Shown piece after piece: positions 15,122 through 52,323 of a stretch of 64,000 nucleotides of DNA; the first letter of the stretch is position 1; every line of letters begins with the position of its first letter. The stretch is from Candidatus Doudnabacteria bacterium (GTDB taxonomy: Bacteria; Patescibacteriota; Doudnabacteria; UBA920). The translations under genes were made by a program, and so were the position numbers. Below the pieces are notes generated by a model, which had not been told where the DNA came from, did no database searches, and worked only from the letters and a program-made list of their open reading frames with translations. The DNA is taken from the NCBI GenBank assembly GCA_016218585.1, contig JACRDK010000010.1, positions 68,974-132,973 on the forward strand, in the 5' to 3' direction.

Positions 15122-17629
15122 TTATTCAAAATGAATAACCCGGTCTTTGATTTTTTCTTTTAACGCCGGGTATTTTTTTAATTCTAAATCGGTTTCTAAA
15201 ATCGCCCTGGCTTCTTGGCGGGCGGGTTCTATGAGCGAGGTGTACGATAGGTCAAAATATTTAAAGTCCCAGCCGGCTTGTTCTGTCCCATAAAGCTGCC
15301 CGAAACCGCGCTGTTTTAAATCCAATTCCGCCAAAGCAAAACCGTCTTGCGTTTTGGCAAACTGCTGTAAGCGCGTAATTGCATCTTGGTTCTGATTCCC
15401 GCAAAAAAGGTAGCAATAAGACTGATGCTCGGCACGGCCAACGCGCCCGCGGAATTGGTGTAATTGGGAAAGGCCGAATCTTTCCGCTCCTTCAATTACA
15501 ATAACCGAAGCATTTGGAACATCTACCCCAACTTCAACCACCGAAGTGGCAACCAAAATTTGCGTTTTATTGGCCAGGAAGTCAGCCATTGCCGCCTCTT
15601 TCTCAACTCCTTTTAAACGACCGTGCAGAAGGCCGATTTTGAAGCCAGGGAAGATTTTTTGTAAGGCTTCGGCTTCATTGACCGCGGATTTAACCCCTAA
15701 GCGGTCCGATTCTTCCACCAGCGGGGTAATAACAAAAGCTTGTCTTCCGGAAGTTATTTCTTTGGCAATAAATTGGTACGCTCCGGCGCGTCCGGCTTGG
15801 TCAACAACTTTGCTTAGAATGTTTTTTCTGTTAGCGGGTTTGGATTTTATTTGTGACAGGCTAAGCTCGCCAAAGAATGCCAATTTTAAGGTGCGGGGGA
15901 TTGGAGTGGCCGAGAGCGATAGCAAGTGCGGCACTCTCGCAGGCGCAGACTTACGCGGATCTAACGCCGACTTACTCGGACCAGAACGGGCCGTGTCGTA
16001 GATAATTCTTTCTATATGCACATCATCGCTGGCAAAGTTTACTAAGAGTGCAAGTTTATAGTTGGAACTTTTTAGATATGTCCAGGCTTGCCGTTTTTCA
16101 ATATTTCCAATAAATGGCAATGCTTTAAGCTCAATTATAATAGTTTTGTCAATAATAAAATCCGGTTGATATGAACCAATGTTTTTACTTTTGTAGATAA
16201 TTGGCAGATTTTTTTCTCTTTCAAACGCAATGCCTTTTTCTTTAAATTTTATTTCTAATGCATTTTGATAAATTTTTTCTTTATGTCCTAATCCGAGCTC
16301 TTTTTTTACTTCAAAAACACAACTTCTAATTTTATAAGTCAAATCTTCAAAAAGCAGAGCTGCCGGTTCTGCGTCGGTCTGCGGCTCAGTCGGCGTTTGT
16401 CCGTGTATCAGTTGCGCGCGTTGCTCTACGCCCCAGCGGTGCTGCTCGTCTATAATTACCAAAGCTAATTTTTTAAACTTGACGTTTTTTTGCAGCAAGG
16501 CATGCGTGCCAAAATAAACCCCGGGCATACCCTCAGAAATTAGTTTTTTAAACTTGTCTTTTGCAACGGTTTCCCCATTTATAATTGAATGGGTATTGGT
16601 GAGAAGGCAAATTTTTAATTTTAAATTTTTAATTTTAAAATTCTTTAGCGCTGTTTCAAAATGCTGTTTAGCCAGAATTTCCGTGGGAGCCAAAAATACC
16701 GCTTGATACCCTTTGTTTATTGTTTGCAGGGCAGCCATTAAGGCAACCAAAGTTTTGCCGCTGCCGACATCGCCTTCCAGCAGCCTGTTCATTGGCTCCT
16801 TTTTTTCTAAGTCCTGCATAATTTCCCAGGCTGATTTTTTTTGTTCGGGAGTAAGTTCAAACGGCAATCCGGCCAAAAAAGTTTTAGTTAAATCCTGATC
16901 AAACTCAGAAGGGTAGCTTTGCTTTTGCGCCATTTCCATTTTAGTTTTTTGCGCAGCTAGCTGGCTAAAAAAGATTTCTTCAAAGGCCAGGCGTTTTTTT
17001 GCCATGTCCAAACGTTCAACTGAGTCCGGAAAGTGGGACTGGGTAATTGTCTCGCTTATGTTTAAAAGTTTTTGGTTGGAAATAATTTTGTTTGGCAGCT
17101 CATCGGTAATCTTTTCAGCCAATGGTAAAACTTCTTTTATAAAATTGCGTAAAGTTTTAGGGTATAGCCCGGCTTTGAGGTGGTAGACGGGAACCAGGCG
17201 GGAAGTGTGAACAGGGAAGTCGGAAACCTTTTCATAAATTGGGTTGGTGAGCTGGAGCTTGTCTTTATAATAATTTGCGGCTCCGGCTAAAAATATTTCT
17301 TCTCCGGCGCTCAAAGTTTTTGCCAGGTAGGGCTGGTTAAACCAGGTTACCTTTAAAGAACCGGTATCATCAGAAACCAGAGCTTCGGCTAAAGACATCC
17401 TTCCCCTAAAGGAAAAGCGAGAAGAAATGCTTTTTATTTTTACTTTTAAGCTAACATTTTCTTCAGGAACAAGTTCTTTTATAGTTTTGGTTTGGCTAAA
17501 GTCTAAATAACGGAACGGCAGGTGTAAAAGCAAATCTCGCACGTTGAAAATCTCGAGTTTTTTTAAAGCCGCAATTTGCGGCTTGGTAATTTTTGGAAGA
17601 TTTTCAATTGGAGAATCTAAGCCGTCCAT
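15122..17629 (-). CDS. recG: ATP-dependent DNA helicase RecG carrying an in-frame ~160 aa GxxExxY-domain insertion between helicase motifs II and III
   Basis: Contains the wedge/OB region, Walker A GDVGSGKT, DEQH, then the inserted GHKEKIY...FIIDKTIIIELK segment, then SATPIPRTL, the HGRL.. and QLHQFRGRVGR motifs. Confidence 0.85.
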   Translation of the reverse strand: MDGLDSPIENLPKITKPQIAALKKLEIFNVRDLLLHLPFRYLDFSQTKTIKELVPEENVSLKVKIKSISSRFSFRGRMSLAEALVSDDTGSLKVTWFNQPYLAKTLSAGEEIFLAGAANYYKDKLQLTNPIYEKVSDFPVHTSRLVPVYHLKAGLYPKTLRNFIKEVLPLAEKITDELPNKIISNQKLLNISETITQSHFPDSVERLDMAKKRLAFEEIFFSQLAAQKTKMEMAQKQSYPSEFDQDLTKTFLAGLPFELTPEQKKSAWEIMQDLEKKEPMNRLLEGDVGSGKTLVALMAALQTINKGYQAVFLAPTEILAKQHFETALKNFKIKNLKLKICLLTNTHSIINGETVAKDKFKKLISEGMPGVYFGTHALLQKNVKFKKLALVIIDEQHRWGVEQRAQLIHGQTPTEPQTDAEPAALLFEDLTYKIRSCVFEVKKELGLGHKEKIYQNALEIKFKEKGIAFEREKNLPIIYKSKNIGSYQPDFIIDKTIIIELKALPFIGNIEKRQAWTYLKSSNYKLALLVNFASDDVHIERIIYDTARSGPSKSALDPRKSAPARVPHLLSLSATPIPRTLKLAFFGELSLSQIKSKPANRKNILSKVVDQAGRAGAYQFIAKEITSGRQAFVITPLVEESDRLGVKSAVNEAEALQKIFPGFKIGLLHGRLKGVEKEAAMADFLANKTQILVATSVVEVGVDVPNASVIVIEGAERFGLSQLHQFRGRVGRAEHQSYCYLFCGNQNQDAITRLQQFAKTQDGFALAELDLKQRGFGQLYGTEQAGWDFKYFDLSYTSLIEPARQEARAILETDLELKKYPALKEKIKDRVIHFE

Positions 17630-17630
17630 A

Positions 17631-17810
17631 TTATAGAAGTAGAGAAATAAAATAAATTAAAAAGATTATCGGCCAGAAAAATGTGTAGTATAACAGAGTA
17701 ATTATATTTTCCGGGAATGGCAAACTGCCCAAGCGGGCGCTAAAAAATCCGGAGATTCCAATTAACAGGTAGCAGACAATAAAAGTAATAATTTTCTTTT
17801 TCATTTGTGT
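17631..17810 (-). CDS. Possible small 2-TM membrane protein (internal Met of a longer ORF that otherwise overlaps the tRNA)
   Basis: MKKKIITFIVCYLLIGISGFF... lies directly upstream of recG on the same strand. Confidence 0.25.
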   Translation of the reverse strand, partial: TQMKKKIITFIVCYLLIGISGFFSARLGSLPFPENIITLLYYTFFWPIIFLIYFISLLL

Positions 17811-17833
17811 TTTGGTTGTATTTGGGCCGGCGT

Positions 17834-17899
17834 GGTGACTTCGGCTGCCTGCCTGCCGGCAGGCAGGGAATCGAACCAGCTTGCCCGCCGTAGCTTTAG
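17834..17899 (-). pseudogene. tRNA 3'-half remnant (variable/T-arm/acceptor-3'/CCA) with a 20-bp palindrome inserted in the T-stem
   Basis: The minus-sense sequence reads gctgg ttcgatt cc[cctgcctgccggcaggcagg]agc cgaagtc a cca. Removing the palindrome restores a perfect gctgg/ccagc T-stem. Confidence 0.4.
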
Positions 17900-17966
17900 C
17901 GAAGGTGGGCGACCTTTCCCTGATAATGGGGAACGCCCCGCCTGCCGCGTCCTTGTATAAAATTTC

Positions 17967-18041
17967 TGGTGCTTCCAGCAGGAATCGAACCTGCATCCCA
18001 GCCTTCGGAGGGCTATACTCTATCCATTGAGCTATAGAAGC
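17967..18041 (-). tRNA. tRNA-Arg (anticodon CCG)
   Basis: 75-nt cloverleaf gcttcta..ctCCGaa..gcagg ttcgatt cctgc tggaagc a cca, with the CCA encoded. Confidence 0.8.
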
Positions 18042-22622: not shown

Positions 22623-22707
22623 AAGGATTTAATATATTGACAAAATTATAATTTTATGGTATCATATTTAGTTCTTGTGTGCAAATTTTGGAAGGAGGAA
22701 TGGCAAG

Positions 22708-23274
22708 ATGAAAAACATCTATGTCGTTACCCATGGAAAAAAATTCCCGGGTGCAAACCCGGGGATGACCGAAGAAGGATTTGCGGAAGTCGCACAACTC
22801 CGCAACCTTCTTCCGGCTAAGGTTCGCGATGTCGTCTGTGGTACAGGCAAGCGCCACCTGGACACGGTCAAGGCTCTTGGCCTTAAACCAACGCGCTACA
22901 CCAGCGCGGTTGGTGGCCCGGACTCCGGCGAAGCCACCGTCAAAGGTGGGCCGGTAGACGTGGTGCGGTTGCCGTGCGGAACATTGGTTCCGTATTACAG
23001 ATACACGACTCTTGTCGATGGCCAGGACGGGATGAAGTCGGTCATTGCACAGCTGCGAAACAACAGCGTGGTCTGTGCCGGCCGTCCCAGCATGATCATG
23101 CTGGGCATGATGGAGGAGGACTCTAAGTCCGCTGCAGTATATAAGGTATCGGTGGCCATGGTCGTCGTATGCGTGAAGGTTGGCGACGAGCCCACGCTCC
23201 GCATAAGAATCGGGAGGGTGCTTAACATTCAGGAAGTCAAAGCGGTCGGCACCTCGGAGATTCACACGGTCTAA
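22708..23274 (+). CDS. Histidine-phosphatase superfamily (PGM/SixA-like) protein with RHG changed to THG; GC-rich foreign gene
   Basis: IYVVTHGKKF...EEGFAEVAQL...DVVCGTGKRHLDTV fits the histidine phosphatase branch-1 layout. There is a strong AGGAGG RBS. Local GC is about 58% against about 38% for the genome. Confidence 0.45.
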   Translation: MKNIYVVTHGKKFPGANPGMTEEGFAEVAQLRNLLPAKVRDVVCGTGKRHLDTVKALGLKPTRYTSAVGGPDSGEATVKGGPVDVVRLPCGTLVPYYRYTTLVDGQDGMKSVIAQLRNNSVVCAGRPSMIMLGMMEEDSKSAAVYKVSVAMVVVCVKVGDEPTLRIRIGRVLNIQEVKAVGTSEIHTV

Positions 23275-23360
23275 GCCCGCCAAATCGGCGACTACGTCCA
23301 AGCATTGATGCCCCGGCACTCCAAAAGAGTGTGCGGGGCATCTTTATATCTTTCTAACAG

Positions 23361-33367: not shown

Positions 33368-35923
33368 TTAGGCTGGGACTGCAACTTTTTCCATTTTTTG
33401 GAGGGAAAAAATTACCTTCTCATTTTTTAATTCCGCGGAGATTTTTGCTCCGTTAATTGCTCTGCCGGCAATTATTTTTTCCGCCAGCGGATCTTCTATT
33501 AACGTTTGAATATTTTTGCGGACAAAGCGCGCGCCTTGCGCCGGGTCAAAACTTTTCTCGGCCACAAACTTAATTACCGCCGGAGAAATTTTCAGTTGCA
33601 GATTTTGCTCGAGCAGCCTGGCTTGGAGAATAGAAATTTGCAGTTGGGAAATTTTCTTTAATTCTTCAAAGCCCAGAGGCTTAAAGACAATAATTTTGTC
33701 TATGCGGTTTAAGAACTCGGGGCGGAATTCTTTTTTCAAATTATCCAACACCCCGGTTTTAATGTTCTCGTATTCTTTTTCCAGGCGGTCTTTCTGATTC
33801 TTTGATTCATCGCTCTTATCCGCAAAACCAATTTTTGCTGCCTGCTGGTTTAATTCCTGCATGCCCAGGTTGGAAGTCATAATAATTACCGTATTGCGGA
33901 AAGAAACTTTTTTTCCCTCGGCATCGGTAAGCTGTCCGTCTTCCAAAATTTGCAGGAAGATGTTAAAGACTTCCGGATTGGCTTTTTCTATTTCATCGAA
34001 CAAGACAACCGCGTACGGTTTGCGCCTTACGGCTTCGGTTAGCCTGCCGCCTTCGCCATAGCCGACATAGCCGGCCGGGGCGCCAATGAGGCGGGAGACA
34101 TTGTGGCGTTCCATAAATTCTGACATATCCACGCGGATGAGTGCATCCTCGTCTTCAAATATTTCGGAGGCTAAAGCCTTGGCGGTTTCGGTTTTGCCGA
34201 CTCCGGTCGGCCCAAGGAAAATAAAGCTTCCCAAAGGGCGCTTAGGGTCGGAAAGTCCGGCCCGGCTTCTGCGGACGGCTTTGGAAATTTCTTCCACGGC
34301 TTCATCCTGCCCGACAATTTTAGCCTTTAAAACTTTTTCCAAGGAGGAAAGTTTGCCTATTTCCGTCTTCGCCAACTTATTAAGCGGAATTTTAGTCATC
34401 ATTGAAACAGTGTGGGCAATGTCTTCCGCGGTTATGGTATGGGTGGGGACTTTTTCTTCCGCAGCCAGGCTTTTAGAGAGTTGTTCTTTTTGTTTGAATA
34501 ACTTTTCTTCCTGGGTGCGCAAATGCAAAGCGGTGGTAAAATCCTGGGCCAATACTGCCTTGGTTTTTTCTTCTTCCAAAGCCGCCAGGTCGCTTTCTAT
34601 TTTTTTTGTAGCTCTGAGCAATTTGCTGTTTGAATTAATGGAGCGCAAGAAAGCAGCTGTTTCATCTATTAAATCCACGGCTTTGTCCGGCAAATAGCGG
34701 TCTTGAATGTAGCGGGAAGAAAGTTCAACCGCGGATTTTATGGCTTCGTCGGTAATGGTAACATTATGATGTTTTTCGTAAGACGGTTTTAGTCCCTGTA
34801 AAATCTCCACGGTTTCTAAGGCGCTTGGCTCTTCCACCAGAATCGGCTGGAAGCGGCGCTCTAAGGCCGCGTCTTTTTCTATGTGCTGTTTGTATTCGGT
34901 TAAAGTAGTTGCGCCAATTGCCCTAAGCTCGCCGCGCGCAAGAGCCGGCTTTAAAATGTTGGCCGCGTCTAAACTGCCGGTGGTCGCGCCTGCGCCAACC
35001 ATAGTATGTAGCTCGTCTATAAATAGAATAACGTCTTTGTCGTTTTTAACTTCGTCAATAATTTGCTTTAAACGATTTTCAAATTCTCCGCGGAACATGC
35101 TGCCGGCAACAATTAACGCCAAATCTAAGGACAGAATTTTTTTGTCCAAGAGGGAATCGGGGACTTCCCGTTTAGTTATAGCTAAAGCCAAACCCTCTAC
35201 AATGGCGGTTTTGCCAACGCCGGCTTCGCCAATTAGGATTGGATTGTTTTTTGTGCGGCGGTTAAGAATGGAAATCATTCTTTCGATTTCATGGCGGCGG
35301 CCAATTACCGGATCAATTAAACCTTGCCCGGCTTTTTTTGTTAAGTCGGTAGTAAAGTATTCAAGCAGGTTTCCTTTTTTTGGATCCATCATTTTTGGCT
35401 GAGGGCCGGCTGGGCCTTCAAACGGAGGCTGCTGCATATTCTCGGCGCCGGAAGGCATTTCCGGAAATTTAGAAATATTTTCAAAGACGTTAACTAAATT
35501 CTGCTCCAGCTCGGAAATATCTATTCCCAGCTTAGACAAAATTACTTTAGCCTTGTTGTGGGGGACATTAAGCAATCCATACAAAAAATGTTCGGTGCCA
35601 ATAAACTGGTAGCCATACTGGCTGGCAATAATTGCCGCTTTTTCTATTACAGATTTTAAATTTTCACTCAAAACCGGTTTCCAGGAAGCAACCGAATTGT
35701 TGCTGTTTACAAAAATCAGCTCCTGTTTTACAACTTCCGGAGTGAGTTTGGTTTTTGTTAAAATTTCCGCGGCAAAAGAACTTTTTTCGGAAACGACTCC
35801 GTACAAAAGATGCTCAGTGCCAATATGGTCGTGTTTTAATTCCTCGCTAACCAACTGCGCCATAATAAGCGCGTTCTTAGCGCGGGAGGAAAGACGTTCT
35901 AAAATGTAGGTGAAATTAGTCAT
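33368..35923 (-). CDS. clpC: ATP-dependent Clp protease ATP-binding subunit ClpC/ClpB-family AAA+ chaperone
   Basis: Clp_N repeats, and two AAA+ modules (GEAGVGKTAIVEGLA and GPTGVGKTETAKALA) joined by a short M-domain. Confidence 0.9.
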   Translation of the reverse strand: MTNFTYILERLSSRAKNALIMAQLVSEELKHDHIGTEHLLYGVVSEKSSFAAEILTKTKLTPEVVKQELIFVNSNNSVASWKPVLSENLKSVIEKAAIIASQYGYQFIGTEHFLYGLLNVPHNKAKVILSKLGIDISELEQNLVNVFENISKFPEMPSGAENMQQPPFEGPAGPQPKMMDPKKGNLLEYFTTDLTKKAGQGLIDPVIGRRHEIERMISILNRRTKNNPILIGEAGVGKTAIVEGLALAITKREVPDSLLDKKILSLDLALIVAGSMFRGEFENRLKQIIDEVKNDKDVILFIDELHTMVGAGATTGSLDAANILKPALARGELRAIGATTLTEYKQHIEKDAALERRFQPILVEEPSALETVEILQGLKPSYEKHHNVTITDEAIKSAVELSSRYIQDRYLPDKAVDLIDETAAFLRSINSNSKLLRATKKIESDLAALEEEKTKAVLAQDFTTALHLRTQEEKLFKQKEQLSKSLAAEEKVPTHTITAEDIAHTVSMMTKIPLNKLAKTEIGKLSSLEKVLKAKIVGQDEAVEEISKAVRRSRAGLSDPKRPLGSFIFLGPTGVGKTETAKALASEIFEDEDALIRVDMSEFMERHNVSRLIGAPAGYVGYGEGGRLTEAVRRKPYAVVLFDEIEKANPEVFNIFLQILEDGQLTDAEGKKVSFRNTVIIMTSNLGMQELNQQAAKIGFADKSDESKNQKDRLEKEYENIKTGVLDNLKKEFRPEFLNRIDKIIVFKPLGFEELKKISQLQISILQARLLEQNLQLKISPAVIKFVAEKSFDPAQGARFVRKNIQTLIEDPLAEKIIAGRAINGAKISAELKNEKVIFSLQKMEKVAVPA

Positions 35924-42158: not shown

Positions 42159-44576
42159 ATGTCTTGGGTAGAAAAAATAAAAACCAGTGTTGATAAATAC
42201 ATTGATGACTTGGCTTTGCGCGAACTTCAGTATCGCGTAAAGTTGGTTTTGCGCGAACGGGCGGAACTGCAAACCTGGACAGATAGGGAAATAAAGCTTG
42301 CGGCCCTAGCCTTTAAGGATGATTTGAAAAAAGGTAAAAGCTTGGACACTTTGGTGGTTCAGGCCTTTGCTGTTGTAAACGAGGCCGCAAGGCGCGTTTT
42401 GGGTCAGTCCGCTTATGAAGTGCAAATTTTAGCAGGCATGGTTATTCATTCCGGCCGCGTGGCGGAAATGAATGCGGGAGAAGGAAAAACTTTAACCGAA
42501 ACTATGCCCGTGTATTTAAATGCGCTTACCGGAAAAGGCGTTCACATAATAACCACCAACGATTATTTAGCCGAACGCGACGCTAAATGGATGGGCAAGC
42601 TGTATGAATTTCTAGGTTTGAGCGTGGGATATGTAACATCTACAATGGAAAATGACGAACGGCGGAAGGCTTACGCTTGCGACATAACTTATGTCACAAA
42701 CCAAGAAATTGGTTTTGATTATTTGCGCGATAATTTAGTTTTTAGCAAAAAAGACAGAGTGTTGCGCGCGAACCACCCGTTATATTTTGGCATTGTGGAT
42801 GAAATTGACAGTATTTTGGTGGATGAATCGCGCACGCCGTTAATTATAGCGGAACCGGTTAAAGAGGAGCGCCAGGAATATGACAAGTTCGCTAAAATCG
42901 CGCAAAAATTAAAAGAGGAAGAGGACTATAAAGTAGATTACGCAAACAAACAGGTAAAAATGACAGATGCCGGTTTGGATAAAGCGGAGAAACTTTTAGG
43001 GAGCCCGGTTTTCTCGCGCGACAACCCAATGTATGTTTTTTATTTGGACGTAAGCTTAAAAGCCAAAGTTATTTTTGAAAAAGACCGGGATTATATTATT
43101 AGCGACGAAGGCGTGGAAATCGTGGACGAATTTACGGGACGCGTTTTGCCCGGGCGCAGGTTTACCGACGGCGTGCATCAGGCCATTGAAGCTAAAGAAA
43201 ATGTTAAAGTCAAAGATGCCGACCGCACCCAGGCAGCTATTACATTTCAGAATTTTTTTCCGATGTATGAAAAACTTTCCGGCATGAGCGGAACGGTTAT
43301 GCGCGCGCGTTCGGAATTTAATAAAGTTTATAAATTAGACGTAATTAAAATTCCTACTAACCGCCCGCTGGCGCGCATTGAACATAATGATTTGTTCTTT
43401 AAAACGGAAAAAGGCAAATTTTTGGGAATGATGAAACGGGTAATGCAAATTCACCGAAAAAACCAACCGCTGCTAATTGGCGCGCGCAATGTGGAAACAG
43501 CGCACAAGGTTGCCGGGCTGCTGGAAGAAGTAAATTTGCCGTTCCAATTGCTTACCGCCAAGGATCATAAGGCGGAAGCGGAAAAAATTGCCAAGGCCGG
43601 GCAGCCGGGAATGATTACAGTGGCGACCAATATGGCCGGGCGCGGTACCGACATTTTGCTCGGGCCCGGAGTTAAAGAGGCTGGCGGATTATTTGTTCTG
43701 GGAACAGAGCGCCATGAATCGCGCCGCATTGACGACCAGTTAGTCGGCCGCGCCGGCAGGCAGGGGGAGCCGGGCGAGTCGCTGTTTGTAATTTCTATGG
43801 AAGATGAAATTATGCAGCTATTCGGCAGTGAAAAAATTATTAATGTCATGGAGCAATATGACATTCCGGAAGACGAATATATTTCCGGGCAAACTTTAAG
43901 CGAGGCATTTAAAAAAGCTCAGGATTTTGTGGAGAGTAAAAATTTGGACAGCCGGTTGTATTTATACAAATACGATAACATTGCCAACCATCAGAGAAAA
44001 GTAATTTGCCAGTTGCGTGATTCGTTATTGGAAAATGAGCCAAATTTTTGGGAATTTGCCAAAACATCGGTGGCGGAAATTTTGCAGGACACGCTTAAAT
44101 TGGGCGACGCTTCCTTAATTGCCAAAGAAATGCTCGCGGTTTTTCATATTGCCGCGGATACTGAAGAGGTAATAAAGGCTTTTGGCGCCTCGCATACGGG
44201 ACAGGGGAGTTTTGCAAATGAATGGTTAAATCCATTTTATACAGAACCGCAAAACAGCAAGCAGGCGGAAGAACTTTTTTCAAAATTGTTAAAGTTTTTA
44301 ATCGACACAATGGAAAAAATTAAACAGGAAGAAGTAGTTTACGCCGCCAGCCAGAATTTAATTTTAGAAACAATCGACAATCAGTGGAGCAACCATTTGG
44401 AATTAATGGATTTGCTTAAGCAGGAAGCCAACCTTTTTTCTTACGCTTCGGAAGACCCGCTAATTGACTATATATTAGAGAGCGCCAAGCTGTTTGAAAA
44501 CATGCAAAAGCAAATAAAGAGGCAATTTTTGACGAATATTTTTTTGCATTTGCAGCAACAGGGCTTAATCGGGTAA
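42159..44576 (+). CDS. secA: Preprotein translocase ATPase SecA
   Basis: MNAGEGKTLTETMPVYLNAL is a Walker A. The DEAD-like motor and C-terminal domain layout are present. Confidence 0.9.
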   Translation: MSWVEKIKTSVDKYIDDLALRELQYRVKLVLRERAELQTWTDREIKLAALAFKDDLKKGKSLDTLVVQAFAVVNEAARRVLGQSAYEVQILAGMVIHSGRVAEMNAGEGKTLTETMPVYLNALTGKGVHIITTNDYLAERDAKWMGKLYEFLGLSVGYVTSTMENDERRKAYACDITYVTNQEIGFDYLRDNLVFSKKDRVLRANHPLYFGIVDEIDSILVDESRTPLIIAEPVKEERQEYDKFAKIAQKLKEEEDYKVDYANKQVKMTDAGLDKAEKLLGSPVFSRDNPMYVFYLDVSLKAKVIFEKDRDYIISDEGVEIVDEFTGRVLPGRRFTDGVHQAIEAKENVKVKDADRTQAAITFQNFFPMYEKLSGMSGTVMRARSEFNKVYKLDVIKIPTNRPLARIEHNDLFFKTEKGKFLGMMKRVMQIHRKNQPLLIGARNVETAHKVAGLLEEVNLPFQLLTAKDHKAEAEKIAKAGQPGMITVATNMAGRGTDILLGPGVKEAGGLFVLGTERHESRRIDDQLVGRAGRQGEPGESLFVISMEDEIMQLFGSEKIINVMEQYDIPEDEYISGQTLSEAFKKAQDFVESKNLDSRLYLYKYDNIANHQRKVICQLRDSLLENEPNFWEFAKTSVAEILQDTLKLGDASLIAKEMLAVFHIAADTEEVIKAFGASHTGQGSFANEWLNPFYTEPQNSKQAEELFSKLLKFLIDTMEKIKQEEVVYAASQNLILETIDNQWSNHLELMDLLKQEANLFSYASEDPLIDYILESAKLFENMQKQIKRQFLTNIFLHLQQQGLIG

Positions 44577-45647: not shown

Positions 45648-47138
45648 ATGGAGTTGGAATTTTTAGAACTTACTGAGCTTAGAAAAAAATTAGACAACAA
45701 AGAACTGTCTTCGGTTGAGCTAACGAAGCATTTTTTGTCGCGCATAAAAAATTTGGACAAAGATTATAATTCTTTTGTTACGGTAACCGAAGAAGAGGCT
45801 TTAAAAAATGCCAAAGAAGCGGACGATTTTATAAATTCCCCCGGTGAAAATCCTTTTTTGTGCGGCATACCTTATGCTTCCAAAGATTTATTTTCAACCA
45901 AAGGAATACGAACTACGGCTTCTTCAAAAATTTTGGATCAGTTTAAACCGGCTTTTGATGCCACGGTAACCAAGAAATTAAAAGAACAAAAATCTGTTTT
46001 ACTGGGAAAAACTAATTTAGATGAATTTGCGCATGGTTCGTCCACGGAAACTTCCGCTTACGGCCCGTCAAAGAATCCCTGGGACACTTCCCGTATTCCG
46101 GGCGGCTCTTCCGGCGGCTCAACCGCTGCGGTTGCGGCCGGCTTAACCCCTTGGGCTACAGCAACGGAAACAGGGGGAAGCATTCGCCAGCCGGCATCTT
46201 TGTGCGGCCTTTCCGGATGGAAACCAACCTACGGGCGCGTGAGCCGCTACGGCGTTATTGCCATGGCCTCATCTTTAGACAGCCCGGGAGCGGTTGCAAA
46301 TAGCGTGGTAGACTTAGCCCATTTGGCGGAGATTATGTCCGGGCAAGACGAAAAAGATTCCACCACCAGCCCGGTTCCGGTACCGGCTTACGCAAAAAAT
46401 TTGTCCGCCGATATGTCGGGCATAAAAATTGGCGTACCCAAAGAATATTTTGTTGATGGAATGGAAGATGGCGTAAAGCAGCGAGTTATGGAAGCCGTAA
46501 AGCATTACGAAAAAATGGGCGCAAAAATTCAGGAAGTAAGTTTGCCAAATACCAAATTTGGTTCTTTGGTATATGCTATTGTTTGCCCTTCGGAAGTTTC
46601 TTCCAACTTAATGCGCTTTGACGGTATTCGTTACGGCCATACCACTAAAGATGCCAAAGACTTAATGGAAGTTTATGAAAAATCCCGCGCCGAGGGTTTT
46701 GGCGATGAGGCCAAGAGAAGAATTTTAACCGGAACTTACGTACTTTCCGCCGGCTATTACGATGCCTACTATAAAAAAGCGCAGAAGGTCCGTAGTTTAA
46801 TTATCAATGAATTTAAAGATGTGTTTAAACAGGTAGATGTACTGGCTTGTCCCTCTAGTCCTAATGTTGCGGTAAAAATTGGCGGGGCAAAAGATAACCC
46901 GTTATTTGGGTACATTGCCGACCAGTTAAATATTCCCGGCAGTTTGGCCGGACTTCCGGCATTGTCTATTCCTTGCGGTTTTGGCCGTCCTTCTGACGGG
47001 GAAACTCCAAGCTTGGATGGTCTACCGGTTGGCTTGCAGATAATCGGTCCGCAGTGGGGCGAGCAAATTGTATTTAACGCAGGGTTTGCGTACCAGCAGG
47101 AAACAGATTGGCACTTAAAGCATCCTGGCCTTGCCTAA
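45648..47138 (+). CDS. gatA: Asp/Glu-tRNA amidotransferase subunit A (amidase signature family)
   Basis: GGSSGGSTAAVAAG amidase signature. Confidence 0.9.
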   Translation: MELEFLELTELRKKLDNKELSSVELTKHFLSRIKNLDKDYNSFVTVTEEEALKNAKEADDFINSPGENPFLCGIPYASKDLFSTKGIRTTASSKILDQFKPAFDATVTKKLKEQKSVLLGKTNLDEFAHGSSTETSAYGPSKNPWDTSRIPGGSSGGSTAAVAAGLTPWATATETGGSIRQPASLCGLSGWKPTYGRVSRYGVIAMASSLDSPGAVANSVVDLAHLAEIMSGQDEKDSTTSPVPVPAYAKNLSADMSGIKIGVPKEYFVDGMEDGVKQRVMEAVKHYEKMGAKIQEVSLPNTKFGSLVYAIVCPSEVSSNLMRFDGIRYGHTTKDAKDLMEVYEKSRAEGFGDEAKRRILTGTYVLSAGYYDAYYKKAQKVRSLIINEFKDVFKQVDVLACPSSPNVAVKIGGAKDNPLFGYIADQLNIPGSLAGLPALSIPCGFGRPSDGETPSLDGLPVGLQIIGPQWGEQIVFNAGFAYQQETDWHLKHPGLA

Positions 47139-49320: not shown

Positions 49321-49484
49321 GAGTCAATAAAAAAGCTGGCCAAATAAAAATTGTGCAGTTTTGGACGATCGTCCAAAACTGCACAATTTGTTTAATATAT
49401 TTTTGCGGTATAAATGTGTTATATAAATGATTCACGGGCAGCGGTTTTAAGGCCGCTGCCCGCGTTGGTTGCTTGAGACGCCGA

Positions 49485-49844
49485 TTAGCGCCGTCCGGCC
49501 GTGGTCCGCCGCGCAAGTCGTTCTTTGGCAGAAGGGGCTGGCCTTGTTGGTCGGTGGTGGATTGTCACTGAGGATGTATCCGATTTCTCTTCCTTGAACC
49601 TTGCCTCTACGAGTGTCCTGACAGTCTTTTTGTCTGTTGTTTCGACATGCCACTTGAGAATGAGGACGTCATCCTTTTTAGGTTTAGGCTTGTTATCCTC
49701 CTTCCAAGGACTGCCTTCACCGCTTGTCGTGAATGTTTCGTAGCCGTCCTGGCCGTCAACGGATACGGTAACCCGCAGTTTGTTGTCAATGACTGTAGTA
49801 TACAGCACATACGCTTCAGCAGTAGTTATTTGAATGTCTGACAT
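49485..49844 (-). CDS. Hypothetical protein in the GC-rich island
   Basis: 119-aa ORF with a GGAGGA RBS. A palindromic operator-like site lies upstream. Confidence 0.4.
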   Translation of the reverse strand: MSDIQITTAEAYVLYTTVIDNKLRVTVSVDGQDGYETFTTSGEGSPWKEDNKPKPKKDDVLILKWHVETTDKKTVRTLVEARFKEEKSDTSSVTIHHRPTRPAPSAKERLARRTTAGRR

Positions 49845-49953
49845 TCATCCTCCTGTGTTGTTTATTTTTTGTCCAGACTTTCGTCTGGAAAATCCAGAGA
49901 CAATAGTGTAATAAATTTTTGCAGATAATGCAATAGAAAAAAGCAAAAACAAA

Positions 49954-49987
49954 AGCGCCGACGGTCCATAAAGGAGCCGTCGGCGCT
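49954..49987 (-). terminator. Rho-independent terminator of the secreted-protein gene
   Basis: 11-bp perfect stem agcgccgacgg/ccgtcggcgct. It is followed by a T-run on the minus strand. Confidence 0.7.
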
Positions 49988-50033
49988 AAGTGTGTTCATC
50001 TCCCGCCACAGTTGGCGAGAGGGAGAGGGGAGA

Positions 50034-51005
50034 TTACTGCTTGGCGGGGACCACCGCGAGTCCTGCGAGCATGGTTTGCTCGCCGGCCTCGTAGTAGACC
50101 TTCACCTTCCCGCGGGTGCTGGGGTTGTACCGGACAATTGTGTGTTGTCCGGCGACCCAGTAAATGTCGTCTTTACCCGCGGCGACCCTGTTGAGGTTGG
50201 TGACCGGGTCTACATTGATCCCATCGAGCACAACCTTCTGGCTGACCTCGCTTTGACCGTAGTCAAAGCTCACTTCGACTAGCTTTCCAGGAACGACGGA
50301 GGTTGGCGCCACAGGGGAGCAGACGGGGTCGTTGCAGGGAGGGTAGGTGAACTCGTTGGCGAGCAGTAGGTAGAGCTTCCCGCCAATCGCCGCAGTGCCA
50401 ACTGGGTACTGATCCAGGTTCACACTGAGTTCTTCCCGGTGCCCGGCGAAGTCCGATGGTCGGGACATGGTGAACCGTTTGTTGTTAGAGTCGGCACATA
50501 CGATGATGTCCTGCGGATTGGCGGACGACATCGTGCAGTAGTCTAGGTTAGTCATGGGCATTGAATCAGCGGTGTAGAATCCGCCAGCCCAAAGGCCAAG
50601 TCCGAGCTTTTCACGCTCCCAGCGATCGGTGAGAGTGAAGCCAAACCTATTTTCGTTGCGCAACCGGCCGTTGGCGGGCAGCAACCACTGCCAGGTTTGT
50701 TCCGGTGTGTGCCAGCGCACCCTGCCTGACGTTGAGTATGTCAGGAAGTTGTAGGCGCCATCGAGCGGTAGAATCTGTTGAGCCGATGGTGCCCAAACAC
50801 GGTTCACTACCTCAATGTTGCCTGCGTAGCTGTGGCAAATGGACCGGGCTTCCCCGGAGTTCCACTCGCCGACCAGAACAACGTCCTTTGTTGGGTCGCA
50901 AATCATAGAAGTCTGCGCGACCGGCACAGGAGCGGTGTTGTTCTGCGCATTGGCTGAAAAGGCCGCGAGGGCGGCCAGGACGAAAATCGAGAAAAACTTT
51001 TTCAT
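50034..51005 (-). CDS. Secreted hypothetical protein (signal peptide), GC-rich foreign gene
   Basis: Start at MKKFFSIFVLAALAAFSANA with an AGGAAG RBS 9 nt upstream. GC is about 58% against about 38% for the surrounding genome. Confidence 0.5.
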   Translation of the reverse strand: MKKFFSIFVLAALAAFSANAQNNTAPVPVAQTSMICDPTKDVVLVGEWNSGEARSICHSYAGNIEVVNRVWAPSAQQILPLDGAYNFLTYSTSGRVRWHTPEQTWQWLLPANGRLRNENRFGFTLTDRWEREKLGLGLWAGGFYTADSMPMTNLDYCTMSSANPQDIIVCADSNNKRFTMSRPSDFAGHREELSVNLDQYPVGTAAIGGKLYLLLANEFTYPPCNDPVCSPVAPTSVVPGKLVEVSFDYGQSEVSQKVVLDGINVDPVTNLNRVAAGKDDIYWVAGQHTIVRYNPSTRGKVKVYYEAGEQTMLAGLAVVPAKQ

Positions 51006-51333
51006 GGTAATCATCTTCCTTGCCGGGGTTGCCGGCGTTTGCCCAATGAGAAACCCTGCAGAAGTTCCCTTGGACAAGCTGAATACCAGGCTTATGGATT
51101 CCGGGTAGCCCGATGTGGCTCCCGGAATGACAAGCTGATATACAATTTGTCCAAGGGAATAATAATCTCCTCTTAAATATCCTCCATAGATATTATTAAG
51201 AACAAAAAATAGGTCTTAAATTTTGCACGATGAGTGCATTATTAAGACCCAATATTATACACCTTTTTGGCTATTTTGTCAAGAGAATAATAAAAAAACA
51301 CGCTTGTTTAAGCGTGTTGAAAATAGGGCAAAA

Positions 51334-52323
51334 TTAGCTATTTAGGAATTTTTGCGTGAGTTTTTCGGCCTTTTTTATGTCCGGTTTTATCCAAATAATA
51401 TTCTTATTTCTTTTCCACCAAGTCATTTGCCGTTTGGCATAGTGTTTAATGGCAAATGAAAGTTGGATAAAAAGTTCATCTTTGGATATTTTCTTTTGCA
51501 AGAATAACGAAACAAATTTATACTCCAAACCGAAACTAATTAATTTTTTCCAGCTTAACGCGGACTGACGCGGAAATTTGCGCGGACTGACCCGGAAGCC
51601 ATCATGAAGATTTTGGACTTCTTTTATCATCCCGTGTTTTAATCTTTCTTTGAGGCGCCTGTCAATTTTTTCATAAAGTGTTTTTTGCGGAAGATTGGTG
51701 CCGAGAATCAGAGTAACATAGAGAGGCGAGGGTTCAGGGTTCAGCGGCGGAACAGGGCGGCCCGTGGAGATTACAATTTCTAAAGCTCTTATAAGCCGCC
51801 TTCGGTTAAACTTATCTATAGTTTTTGCCCGTTGTGGATCCAAACGGCTAATTCGTGCGAATAAGCCGGTGGTGGAAAGCTTTTCCAAGCGCGCGCGAAG
51901 TTTTAAGTTAGGTTTAATTTCCGGGATTTTTTGGTCATAAATAACCGCGTCAATCCAGTGCATGGTGCCGCCGCAAAGAATAGGCAAGCGCCCGCGCTTT
52001 AAAATTTCAGCAATAATTTTTTTTGCTTCTTTTTGAAAACGAGCTGCGGAATATTGGCGGGCCGGATTTTGAAAATCTATCAGGTGGTGGGGAATAGATT
52101 TGTAAACATAAGTCAAATAGGACTTATTAGACTTATTTGTCTGATTAACTTTTTGCCAAGAGCCAGCCACTTTTCCCGTGCCAATGTCCATGCCTTTATA
52201 GACTTGCCGGCTGTCGCAAGAGATAATTTCACCATTAAATTTTTTTGCTAAGGCAACCGCCAGTTCCGATTTGCCCGAGGCGGTGGGGCCGACTACGGCG
52301 AGTAGTTTAGAATTATGATTCAT
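51334..52323 (-). CDS. miaA: tRNA dimethylallyltransferase
   Basis: P-loop GPTASGKSELAVALA and a conserved MiaA layout. Confidence 0.9.
   Translation of the reverse strand: MNHNSKLLAVVGPTASGKSELAVALAKKFNGEIISCDSRQVYKGMDIGTGKVAGSWQKVNQTNKSNKSYLTYVYKSIPHHLIDFQNPARQYSAARFQKEAKKIIAEILKRGRLPILCGGTMHWIDAVIYDQKIPEIKPNLKLRARLEKLSTTGLFARISRLDPQRAKTIDKFNRRRLIRALEIVISTGRPVPPLNPEPSPLYVTLILGTNLPQKTLYEKIDRRLKERLKHGMIKEVQNLHDGFRVSPRKFPRQSALSWKKLISFGLEYKFVSLFLQKKISKDELFIQLSFAIKHYAKRQMTWWKRNKNIIWIKPDIKKAEKLTQKFLNS

Follow-up and report, generated by a model that had tools for sequence, protein, structure and literature searches.

A nuclease-encoding in-frame insert bounded by inverted repeats in recG of a Candidatus Doudnabacteria bacterium, a probable non-splicing mobile element

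The host gene and the limits of the insert

The recG gene on a stretch of 64,000 nucleotides (nt) from a Candidatus Doudnabacteria bacterium (assembly GCA_016218585.1, contig JACRDK010000010.1, positions 68,974 to 132,973; hereafter the window) is interrupted in frame by an insert that encodes a nuclease-like core between two inverted repeat arms. The insert is read here as a probable mobile element. By sequence comparison, it is one instance of a phenomenon widespread in bacteria of the candidate phyla radiation (CPR).

The recG product of the window (P0001) is 100% identical to a Candidatus Doudnabacteria protein named 'GxxExxY protein' at NCBI. It was matched by the NCBIfam RecG equivalog NF008168 with 747.8 bits (cut-off 718), the match being split over amino acids (aa) 4–411 and approximately 560–831, and by the Pfam families RecG_wedge, DEAD, Helicase_C and RecG_dom3_C, and is a RecG protein by these matches. 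Alignment with ten close RecG proteins delimited an insert of 156 aa (aa 409–564, window positions 15938–16405) in host orientation and host reading frame, between motif II (DEQH) and motif III (SAT). A first-pass annotation, made from the letters of the window, had reported an in-frame nuclease-like domain of about 160 aa at 15930–16410 between these two motifs. The domain was confirmed, and its extent was essentially right. The helix GVEQRAQLI follows motif II directly before the insert, and the junctions read ...QLI/HGQT... upstream and ...KSAPA/RVPH... downstream. Coordinates of all parts are listed in Table 1.

The loop that carries the insert is variable and is flanked by invariant blocks, D394–R404 upstream and P567–R579 downstream; among 75 RecG proteins the downstream block comprised P567 H568 L569 ... 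A574 T575 P576 P578 R579. A survey of orthologs, one of the checks proposed by the first-pass annotation, covered the 120 closest RecG proteins. Exactly 10 residues separate QR from PHLL in 107 of them, which is the canonical empty loop. Three carry a full insert (P0001, P0002 and P0004) and a single one (P0005) the two arms joined without a core; five have short expansions and four lacked a match to the search pattern. P0003, the nearest RecG relative of the window protein (82% identity), is without the insert. Between P0001 and P0004 the host parts of RecG are 69–79% identical in amino acid sequence, with a ratio of nonsynonymous to synonymous divergence (dN/dS) of 0.09–0.14 and a synonymous divergence (dS) of 1.6–1.8. 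Since the host parts are under purifying selection, the insert-bearing recG genes are not pseudogenes.

The AlphaFold model of RecG was confident outside the insert, and its top match in the PDB was T. maritima RecG (1gm5_A, E 1.1e-44). Because only 3 sequences cover the insert in the full-length model, where its predicted local distance difference test score (pLDDT) is 30–67, its placement relative to the helicase is unreadable. Host and insert were modelled as separate structures, as MAFFT spread the short free-standing GxxExxY proteins along RecG.

The nuclease core

The core has neither a start codon nor a stop codon of its own. In the profile searches that had been recommended for it, TIGR04256 matched aa 429–543 of RecG over the whole profile (1–116 of 116; 118.8 bits, cut-off 35) and Pfam PF13366 (PDDEXK_3) matched aa 429–541 (E 4.7e-32, 111.2 bits, cut-off 22). 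Conservation was judged in an alignment of 26 embedded core copies (A5) and also against free-standing relatives. The G and Y of the G-x-x-E-x-x-Y motif are invariant, and its E is conserved to at least 90%, in alignments A4 and A5. The catalytic D is invariant as D71 (with P70) in A5 and as D85 in A4, and so is the E-x-K, as E81 and K83 in A5 and as E95 and K97 in A4. GHKEKIY had been recognised correctly at first pass. The aspartate had been sought in a string beginning FIIDK, which holds the following residues; the catalytic one is the D of QPDF. By these matches the core is an intact, full-length member of the GxxExxY (TIGR04256/PF13366) family with predicted nuclease activity.

Modelled alone, the core folded with pLDDT >90 into a PD-(D/E)XK (restriction-endonuclease-like) fold. 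The catalytic domain of I-Bth0305I was among the structural matches, and there was weak similarity to tRNA-splicing endonucleases. A special kinship with T7 endonuclease I or Hjc was considered and rejected, the similarity being weak and generic for PD-(D/E)XK folds. The core is under strong purifying selection: P0001 and P0004 are 90% identical here, with dN/dS 0.04 at a dS of about 1.4.

PDDEXK_3 was the sole domain found in the element by Pfam, with no transposase of the DDE, HUH or serine/tyrosine recombinase type. No Hint, intein or LAGLIDADG family appeared among Pfam matches at E up to 0.01. The first insert residue is not a nucleophile, and the downstream junction has no His-Asn followed by Cys/Ser/Thr, as an intein would. 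Rfam gave no match in 15700–16650 at E up to 1, and in the whole window it yielded tRNAs only. An intein or intron was rejected on these grounds (splicing motifs, Hint domain, Rfam), in agreement with the earlier remark that intein splicing motifs are missing.

The repeat arms

GC content is 0.61 at the 3' junction (15900–15999) and 0.63 at the 5' junction (16350–16449), compared with 0.24–0.31 in the core. An abruptly GC-rich 3' junction had been noticed before; the equally GC-rich 5' junction had been overlooked, and both are inverted repeat arrays. The 5' arm consists of about four degenerate units of approximately 10 nt of the CGC(A/G)GAC type (CACGGAC, CGCCGAC, CGCAGAC and CGCAGAA). The 3' arm holds inverted copies of these units (GTCCGAG, GTCGGCG, ATCCGCG and GTCTGCG) and contains a 21-nt tandem repeat. 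In the window copy the arms pair with a duplex energy of -51 kcal/mol and form the closing stem in both the minimum free energy (MFE) and the centroid RNA fold of the insert. The arms of P0004, joined by a loop, gave a fold z-score of -8.0. For the window copy this value is about -1.8, i.e. its arms are partly decayed.

The same architecture was found at 77 related loci, where the flanks have a GC content of 0.52 (5') and 0.51 (3') and the core one of 0.34. Two hexamers, CGCAGA and CGCGGA, are more frequent than any other, both in 5' flanks and in 3' flanks read as the reverse complement. Pairing of arm with arm had a median duplex energy of -54.6 kcal/mol (z = -4.75), with z below -2 in 95% of the loci, versus -24.6 kcal/mol (z = 0.01) for host control blocks. 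Inverted repeats of 42 nt built of (A/C)GCAGA units also surround a free-standing relative, P0127 (locus L010). Because hexamers and complementarity are shared across the 77 loci and recur at P0127, the arms belong to the element. [quoted passage not shown]

In all arm-carrying pairs dN/dS of the arms was 0.4–1.8 and dS 0.2–0.9, versus dS >1.4 elsewhere, values based on only 13–16 codons per arm. The lack of peptide constraint together with the low synonymous divergence suggests, from so few codons, that the arms are conserved as nucleic acid and not as peptide. Junction codons of P0001, P0002, P0004 and P0005 are not repeated when compared with the empty P0003 and P0006, a comparison that a duplication of 1–4 nt could escape.

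Two LepA inserts from Doudnabacteria (L040 and L069) have kept the 5' arm and lost the 3' arm, so that the core runs directly into the LNLIDTPGH region; these may be immobilised copies. Elsewhere in the window, positions 51557–51600 of miaA (51334–52323, minus strand) hold two TCAGTCCGCG units that encode FRVSPRKFPRQSAL, the same unit as in the 3' arm of recG. Tentatively, this stretch may be what is left, in frame, of a member of the same repeat family, or one arm by itself.

Table 1. Parts of the interrupted recG gene in the window
Feature	Position	Strand	Remarks
recG, host gene with the in-frame element	15122..17629	minus	835-aa open reading frame (ORF)
RecG N-terminal part, aa 1–408, wedge domain	16406..17629	minus	pLDDT mostly 80–95
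RecG Walker A, GDVGSGKT	16751–16774	minus	
RecG motif II, DEQH, aa 394–397	16439–16450	minus	
5' arm, aa 409–424 (HGQTPTEPQTDAEPAA), GC-rich	16358..16405	minus	low pLDDT
GxxExxY/PDDEXK_3 nuclease core, 124 aa, aa 425–548, AT-rich	15986..16357	minus	
GHKEKIY, aa 448–454	16268..16288	minus	G-x-x-E-x-x-Y motif with first catalytic glutamate
QPDF, aa 488–491	16157..16168	minus	holds the catalytic aspartate
IELKA, aa 499–503	16121..16135	minus	E-x-K of the PD-(D/E)XK active site
3' arm, aa 549–564 (SGPSKSALDPRKSAPA), GC-rich	15938..15985	minus	
RecG C-terminal part, aa 565–835	15122..15937	minus	begins with RVPHLLSLSATPIPRT (aa 565–580)
RecG motif III, SAT, aa 573–575	15905–15913	minus	
Predicted peptides across the two insert junctions of RecG			AQLIHGQTPTEPQTDAEPAALLFEDLTYK, IIYDTARSGPSK

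The same element in other host genes

A search with the 156-aa insert as query turned up LepA fragments with a like insert between the G2 and G3 regions. An exhaustive HMMER scan of 1.84 billion representative proteins returned 9,520 matches at E up to 1e-3, and nearly all of the approximately 35 best matches (42–63% identity) were long proteins with the domain in an internal position. By Pfam, the embedded cores reside in RecG (8 clusters), LepA (7 clusters), glycosyltransferases of the GT2 and GT4 families, LeuRS, GatB, RtcB, DHFR, O-antigen ligase (Wzy_C), riboflavin kinase, transketolase, asparagine synthase (AsnB) and a P-type ATPase. In several host proteins the host Pfam domain is split into two stretches around the insert. 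All embedded-core hosts examined share the two linker peptides, and the cores open directly with (L/F)LYxDLTY, with no Met. A few codons downstream of the insertion sites are invariant motifs (SATPIPRT, LIDTPGH, HRKGATRA and IGGGxxY).

For a survey of species representatives, a profile of the 26 embedded cores was used. It retrieved 280 loci, the best 80 of which were analysed. Essentially all of these best 80 loci are from CPR/Patescibacteria (Doudna-, Magasanik-, Moran-, Giovannoni-, Kaiser-, Lipton-, Sungii- and Yanofskybacteria, and Paceibacterota). Their hosts are LepA (39), RecG (34), LeuRS (3) and four others. In 80 of 80 the ORF is open on both sides of the core, with no stop after the nuclease. 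A nuclease-like domain within RecG is unusual for RecG in general, as had been remarked, yet it recurs across CPR bacteria. As the same element sits in many unrelated host proteins, a RecG-specific function of the insert appears very unlikely.

In a distance tree the embedded copies formed a cluster of their own, apart from free-standing GxxExxY proteins. The latter belong to the same family (33–50% identity), at least one of them with (A/C)GCAGA inverted repeats; unlike the embedded cores they are stand-alone genes for 125–150 aa with their own start codon, and the named examples are from Omnitrophota and Planctomycetota.

Other arrangements were also seen. GxxExxY domains occur at the N-terminus of 440–530-aa proteins with no other Pfam domain (P0223, P0226, P0247 and similar) and as tandem doubles in proteins of 260–275 aa (P0208, P0210, P0222 and similar). 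In the LepA fragment P0123 the 3' junction is duplicated along with host residues (…NSAQVEGVILNLIDDSARTSALSALSQRNSAQIEDYVLNLIDTPGH), which looks as if repair had gone wrong or the site had been invaded a second time.

Movement, derivatives and decay

Full (P0004), arms-only (P0005) and empty (P0006) recG alleles were found among hosts that are approximately 93% identical. Core identity hardly followed host identity, with Spearman coefficients of 0.16 (30 RecG loci) and 0.26 (35 LepA loci). Explicit pairs illustrate the discordance in both directions. The RecG hosts of L074 and L094 are 78–86% identical and the LepA hosts of L059 and L089 about 89%, with cores of 53% (and different arms) and 52% identity, respectively; in L031/L033 and L033/L049 the C-terminal host parts of LepA are 47–56% identical and the cores 84–89%. 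Discordance was assessed from these identity correlations and pairs. As with homing genes, occupation recurs at one loop of a host (34 RecG and 39 LepA loci) and is sporadic among close relatives, and the similarity of elements disagrees with that of their hosts.

For 76 of 92 cores the nearest neighbour belonged to the same host gene (31 would be expected by chance), and the RecG and LepA copies of one metagenome-assembled genome (MAG) are only 57% identical. Occasional jumps between genes are indicated by the core of GatB P0180, which shares about 82% identity with a copy in LepA. No second copy was detected in the 64-kb window by tblastn of the insert or blastn of the arms.

Arm-only hairpins, in frame, were found in P0005 RecG, at a second LepA site of L008 and about 13 more times in 390 kb. 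Several of them lie at a second LepA site, at which a full copy was not observed, which suggests mobilisation in trans, as for MITEs. These palindromic repeats are in frame and kept in unrelated genes, as are Rickettsia palindromic elements (RPEs), to which they are analogous and not homologous. In L008 (positions 1273–2492, LepA, a Hainich groundwater contig) a full element at the usual site is accompanied by the downstream arm-only hairpin (GDADQRGQHADQRGNFLRESASSQRKSA). The LepA of L008 also contains an in-frame stop (HVDF, stop, YEVSR), probably a sequencing error, as contig coverage is 2x. L009 was left aside, as an assembly gap lies at its 3' junction.

Interpretation and alternatives

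The insert is very likely a selfish, translated, in-frame mobile element. We think it probable, with less assurance, that it is of a non-splicing, homing-endonuclease-like type with MITE-like derivatives. A homing-like life cycle is proposed because presence is patchy, the site recurrent, the trees discordant and remnants degenerate; the comparison draws on the established life cycle of inteins and intron-encoded endonucleases. The first-pass annotation had suggested a domesticated, homing-endonuclease-like invader. Of this, the invader is borne out by the patchy occurrence, the recurrent loop and the uncorrelated host and element, and domestication is unsupported, the nearest relatives of the core being in unrelated hosts.

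In the proposed mechanism, the ribosome would read straight through the element, and the nuclease would be made solely as an internal domain of RecG, the arms being translated into two disordered, hydrophilic linkers. RecG function would be kept, as the domain would fold independently on the surface of the first RecA-like lobe. The nuclease would cut element-free alleles close to the conserved motif beside the loop, and repair by recombination from a filled allele would copy the element in, i.e. homing without splicing. Such donor DNA could reach CPR cells by uptake. Most likely, the arms would serve as cis sites that the nuclease binds or cuts. Rare jumps would carry the element to loops of other genes. 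Copies would decay through loss of the nuclease gene, leaving the two arms as an in-frame hairpin, and such arm-only hairpins may also be moved in trans.

The open frame on both sides of the core in all 80 related loci makes it very probable that the domain is retained in mature RecG, as had been supposed at first pass.

Several points weigh against the homing-like reading. Homing-type spread is the best but unproven mechanism, drawn from the distribution of the element, and retention in mature RecG is a prediction from sequence. Classical homing elements do not need inverted repeat arms. The arms and the arm-only hairpins would fit a transposon with non-autonomous derivatives better. No target-site duplication was seen at the compared recG junctions. 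By their sequences, closely related cores are found in different host genes (GatB P0180 and LepA, see above), and the position of the junction within the loop shifts by a few codons between independent copies. In a co-conversion test on LepA, third-position identity rose slightly, and solely within the first 15 host codons (0.56 versus 0.46), at synonymous sites that are saturated. The window copy itself may no longer move, because its arms are partly decayed.

These points lead to the main rival, a transposon bounded by inverted repeats, which we regard as rather unlikely, though the least so of the alternatives. Here the nuclease would recognise the arms and cut out or nick the element or arm-only hairpins, which host repair would insert elsewhere; the RecG and LepA sites would recur because few loops can accommodate 150 additional residues and selection favours these, not because of nuclease specificity. 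Such a transposon would account for arms that are complementary in 95% of the 77 loci and built from one shared unit, for the 42-nt inverted repeats of (A/C)GCAGA units at free-standing P0127 (L010), for LepA sites that hold an arm-only hairpin and at which a full copy was not observed, for jumps between unrelated genes at 70–82% core identity and for junctions that vary by a few codons inside one loop. However, the element lacks a DDE or HUH transposase and, to our knowledge, strand transfer is not a reaction of PD-(D/E)XK nucleases acting by themselves. Nor were a target-site duplication or a second copy within the 64-kb window seen, the cores cluster by host gene (76 of 92), and two copies of one MAG are just 57% identical.

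Far less probable is domestication, in which RecG would use the embedded nuclease to cut branched DNA as a helicase-resolvase fusion. The strong purifying selection on the core (dN/dS 0.04) and the action of RecG on junctions (1gm5) would suit such a fusion. It was rejected in view of the wide host range and the many empty relatives: the same element lineage is present in LepA, GatB, LeuRS, DHFR, glycosyltransferases and others, and the insert is missing from the loop in 107 of the 120 closest RecG proteins, including P0003 at 82% identity. Moreover, repeat arms and arm-only remnants are hallmarks of mobile elements, and related hosts carry unrelated cores.

More improbable still is removal at the RNA level, by which the arms would form a long stem, RNase III or the encoded endonuclease would cut it, and the ends would be rejoined to give a mature RecG without the domain. 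The stem closes in both MFE and centroid folds, with duplex energies of -51 to -55 kcal/mol, and the core fold is weakly like that of tRNA-splicing endonucleases. Against this, the frame is open across both junctions in 80 of 80 loci, for which there would be no selection if the insert were excised, and Rfam gave no match even at E up to 1. In addition, cleavage of rRNA intervening sequences by RNase III leaves fragments with no religation. Excision of this or the rRNA type was rejected on the open frames. A chance event or assembly artefact was dismissed, since a like insert occupies the same loop in independent assemblies (P0002, P0004 and 34 species-representative RecG loci).

Comparison with known systems

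Like inteins, the element probably read here as homing-endonuclease-like sits in frame next to invariant motifs of conserved housekeeping proteins (among them helicases, GTPases and synthetases), is patchily distributed with disagreeing host and element trees, and has its nuclease made by read-through of the host gene. Unlike inteins, it has no Hint domain and none of the Cys/Ser ... His-Asn-Cys/Ser/Thr junctions, so that no protein splicing is expected; its nuclease is PD-(D/E)XK, not LAGLIDADG or HNH, and inverted repeat arms flank it. The PD-(D/E)XK homing endonucleases I-Ssp6803I and I-Bth0305I likewise employ a restriction-fold nuclease for homing, which is the presumed activity here. These reside in self-splicing introns or between split-intein halves, whereas the present element has no splicing partner. 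A link to the I-Bth0305I-type family was reportedly made in the paper on 'fractured genes'.

The repetitive extragenic palindromes (REPs) and their associated tyrosine transposases (RAYTs; REPIN) resemble the element in having a nuclease-type gene between short inverted repeats and many non-autonomous hairpin doublets. They differ in their enzyme, RAYT being an HUH tyrosine transposase and not a PD-(D/E)XK nuclease as here, and in their place, REPs being extragenic and the present elements translated parts of genes. Intervening sequences of 23S rRNA are AT-rich, closed by a stem of complementary flanks and sometimes contain a small ORF, and RNase III cuts them out. The element, by contrast, interrupts a gene that codes for protein, and the reading frame is kept.

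RPEs are in-frame palindromes for which no enzyme is known and which are kept in unrelated metabolic and housekeeping proteins (PMC10969869). The arm-only forms found here (P0005 and the second LepA site of L008) look the same. The present elements differ from RPEs in their repeat unit, in their CPR lineage and in that an intact nuclease gene can lie between the arms.

The full-text literature searched, which did not extend to subscription journals, yielded no account of such inserts. We tentatively put forward, as a possibility held with less confidence than the homing-like reading itself, an undescribed class of 'translated intervening element' widespread in CPR/Patescibacteria. Its members would invade essential genes in frame with neither RNA nor protein splicing, have their PD-(D/E)XK nuclease expressed solely within the host protein, as an internal domain, use inverted repeat arms both as linker-coding sequence and as cis sites, and spawn RPE-like in-frame hairpins.

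If this is true, translation as a self-folding surface domain on flexible linkers would be a third way to sit harmlessly in an essential gene, besides self-splicing introns and inteins. The element would also be a candidate autonomous partner for in-frame palindromic repeats, an open question for RPEs since 2000. It would give a first proposed biological role to the large GxxExxY family (9,520 matches among representative proteins, E up to 1e-3), the function of which is listed as 'Unknown' in a survey of PD-(D/E)XK proteins (PMC3424549). Many CPR housekeeping proteins that are longer than their orthologs and misnamed, such as RecG as 'GxxExxY protein', would be explained. Protein engineering could draw on the permissive insertion loops that the data reveal in RecG, LepA, GatB, RtcB, DHFR and others, and nucleases of this type, if they recognise conserved gene motifs, would offer a compact site-specific scaffold of about 120 aa.

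Other observations in the window

Further GC-rich stretches were noted. Between the start of recG and tRNA-Arg(CCG) at 17967–18041 lies a 150-nt stretch (17809–17966, GC 0.64), and an ORF of 121 aa (17631–17996) overlaps the tRNA gene; neither the stretch nor the ORF gave a family or Rfam match. At 22650–23320 (GC about 0.6), long overlapping ORFs of 221 aa on the minus and 199 aa on the plus strand gave no protein-family and no Rfam match. The other islands, within 33368–35923, 42159–44576 and 45648–47138, were considered as similar inserts and rejected, since they are ordinary: the parts of the ClpB-like ATPase, SecA and GatA-type amidase genes in which they fall are conserved.

A block at 49348–51160 has a GC content of 0.55–0.66 versus about 0.40 elsewhere. 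Its two ORFs (50034–51077 and 49485–49844, both on the minus strand) had no Pfam or NCBIfam match, and the 49.4–51.1 kb island had no match to an RNA family. A perfect palindrome of 42 bp (49348–49389) and an inverted repeat (51065–51089/51135–51159) delimit the block, which may be acquired DNA.

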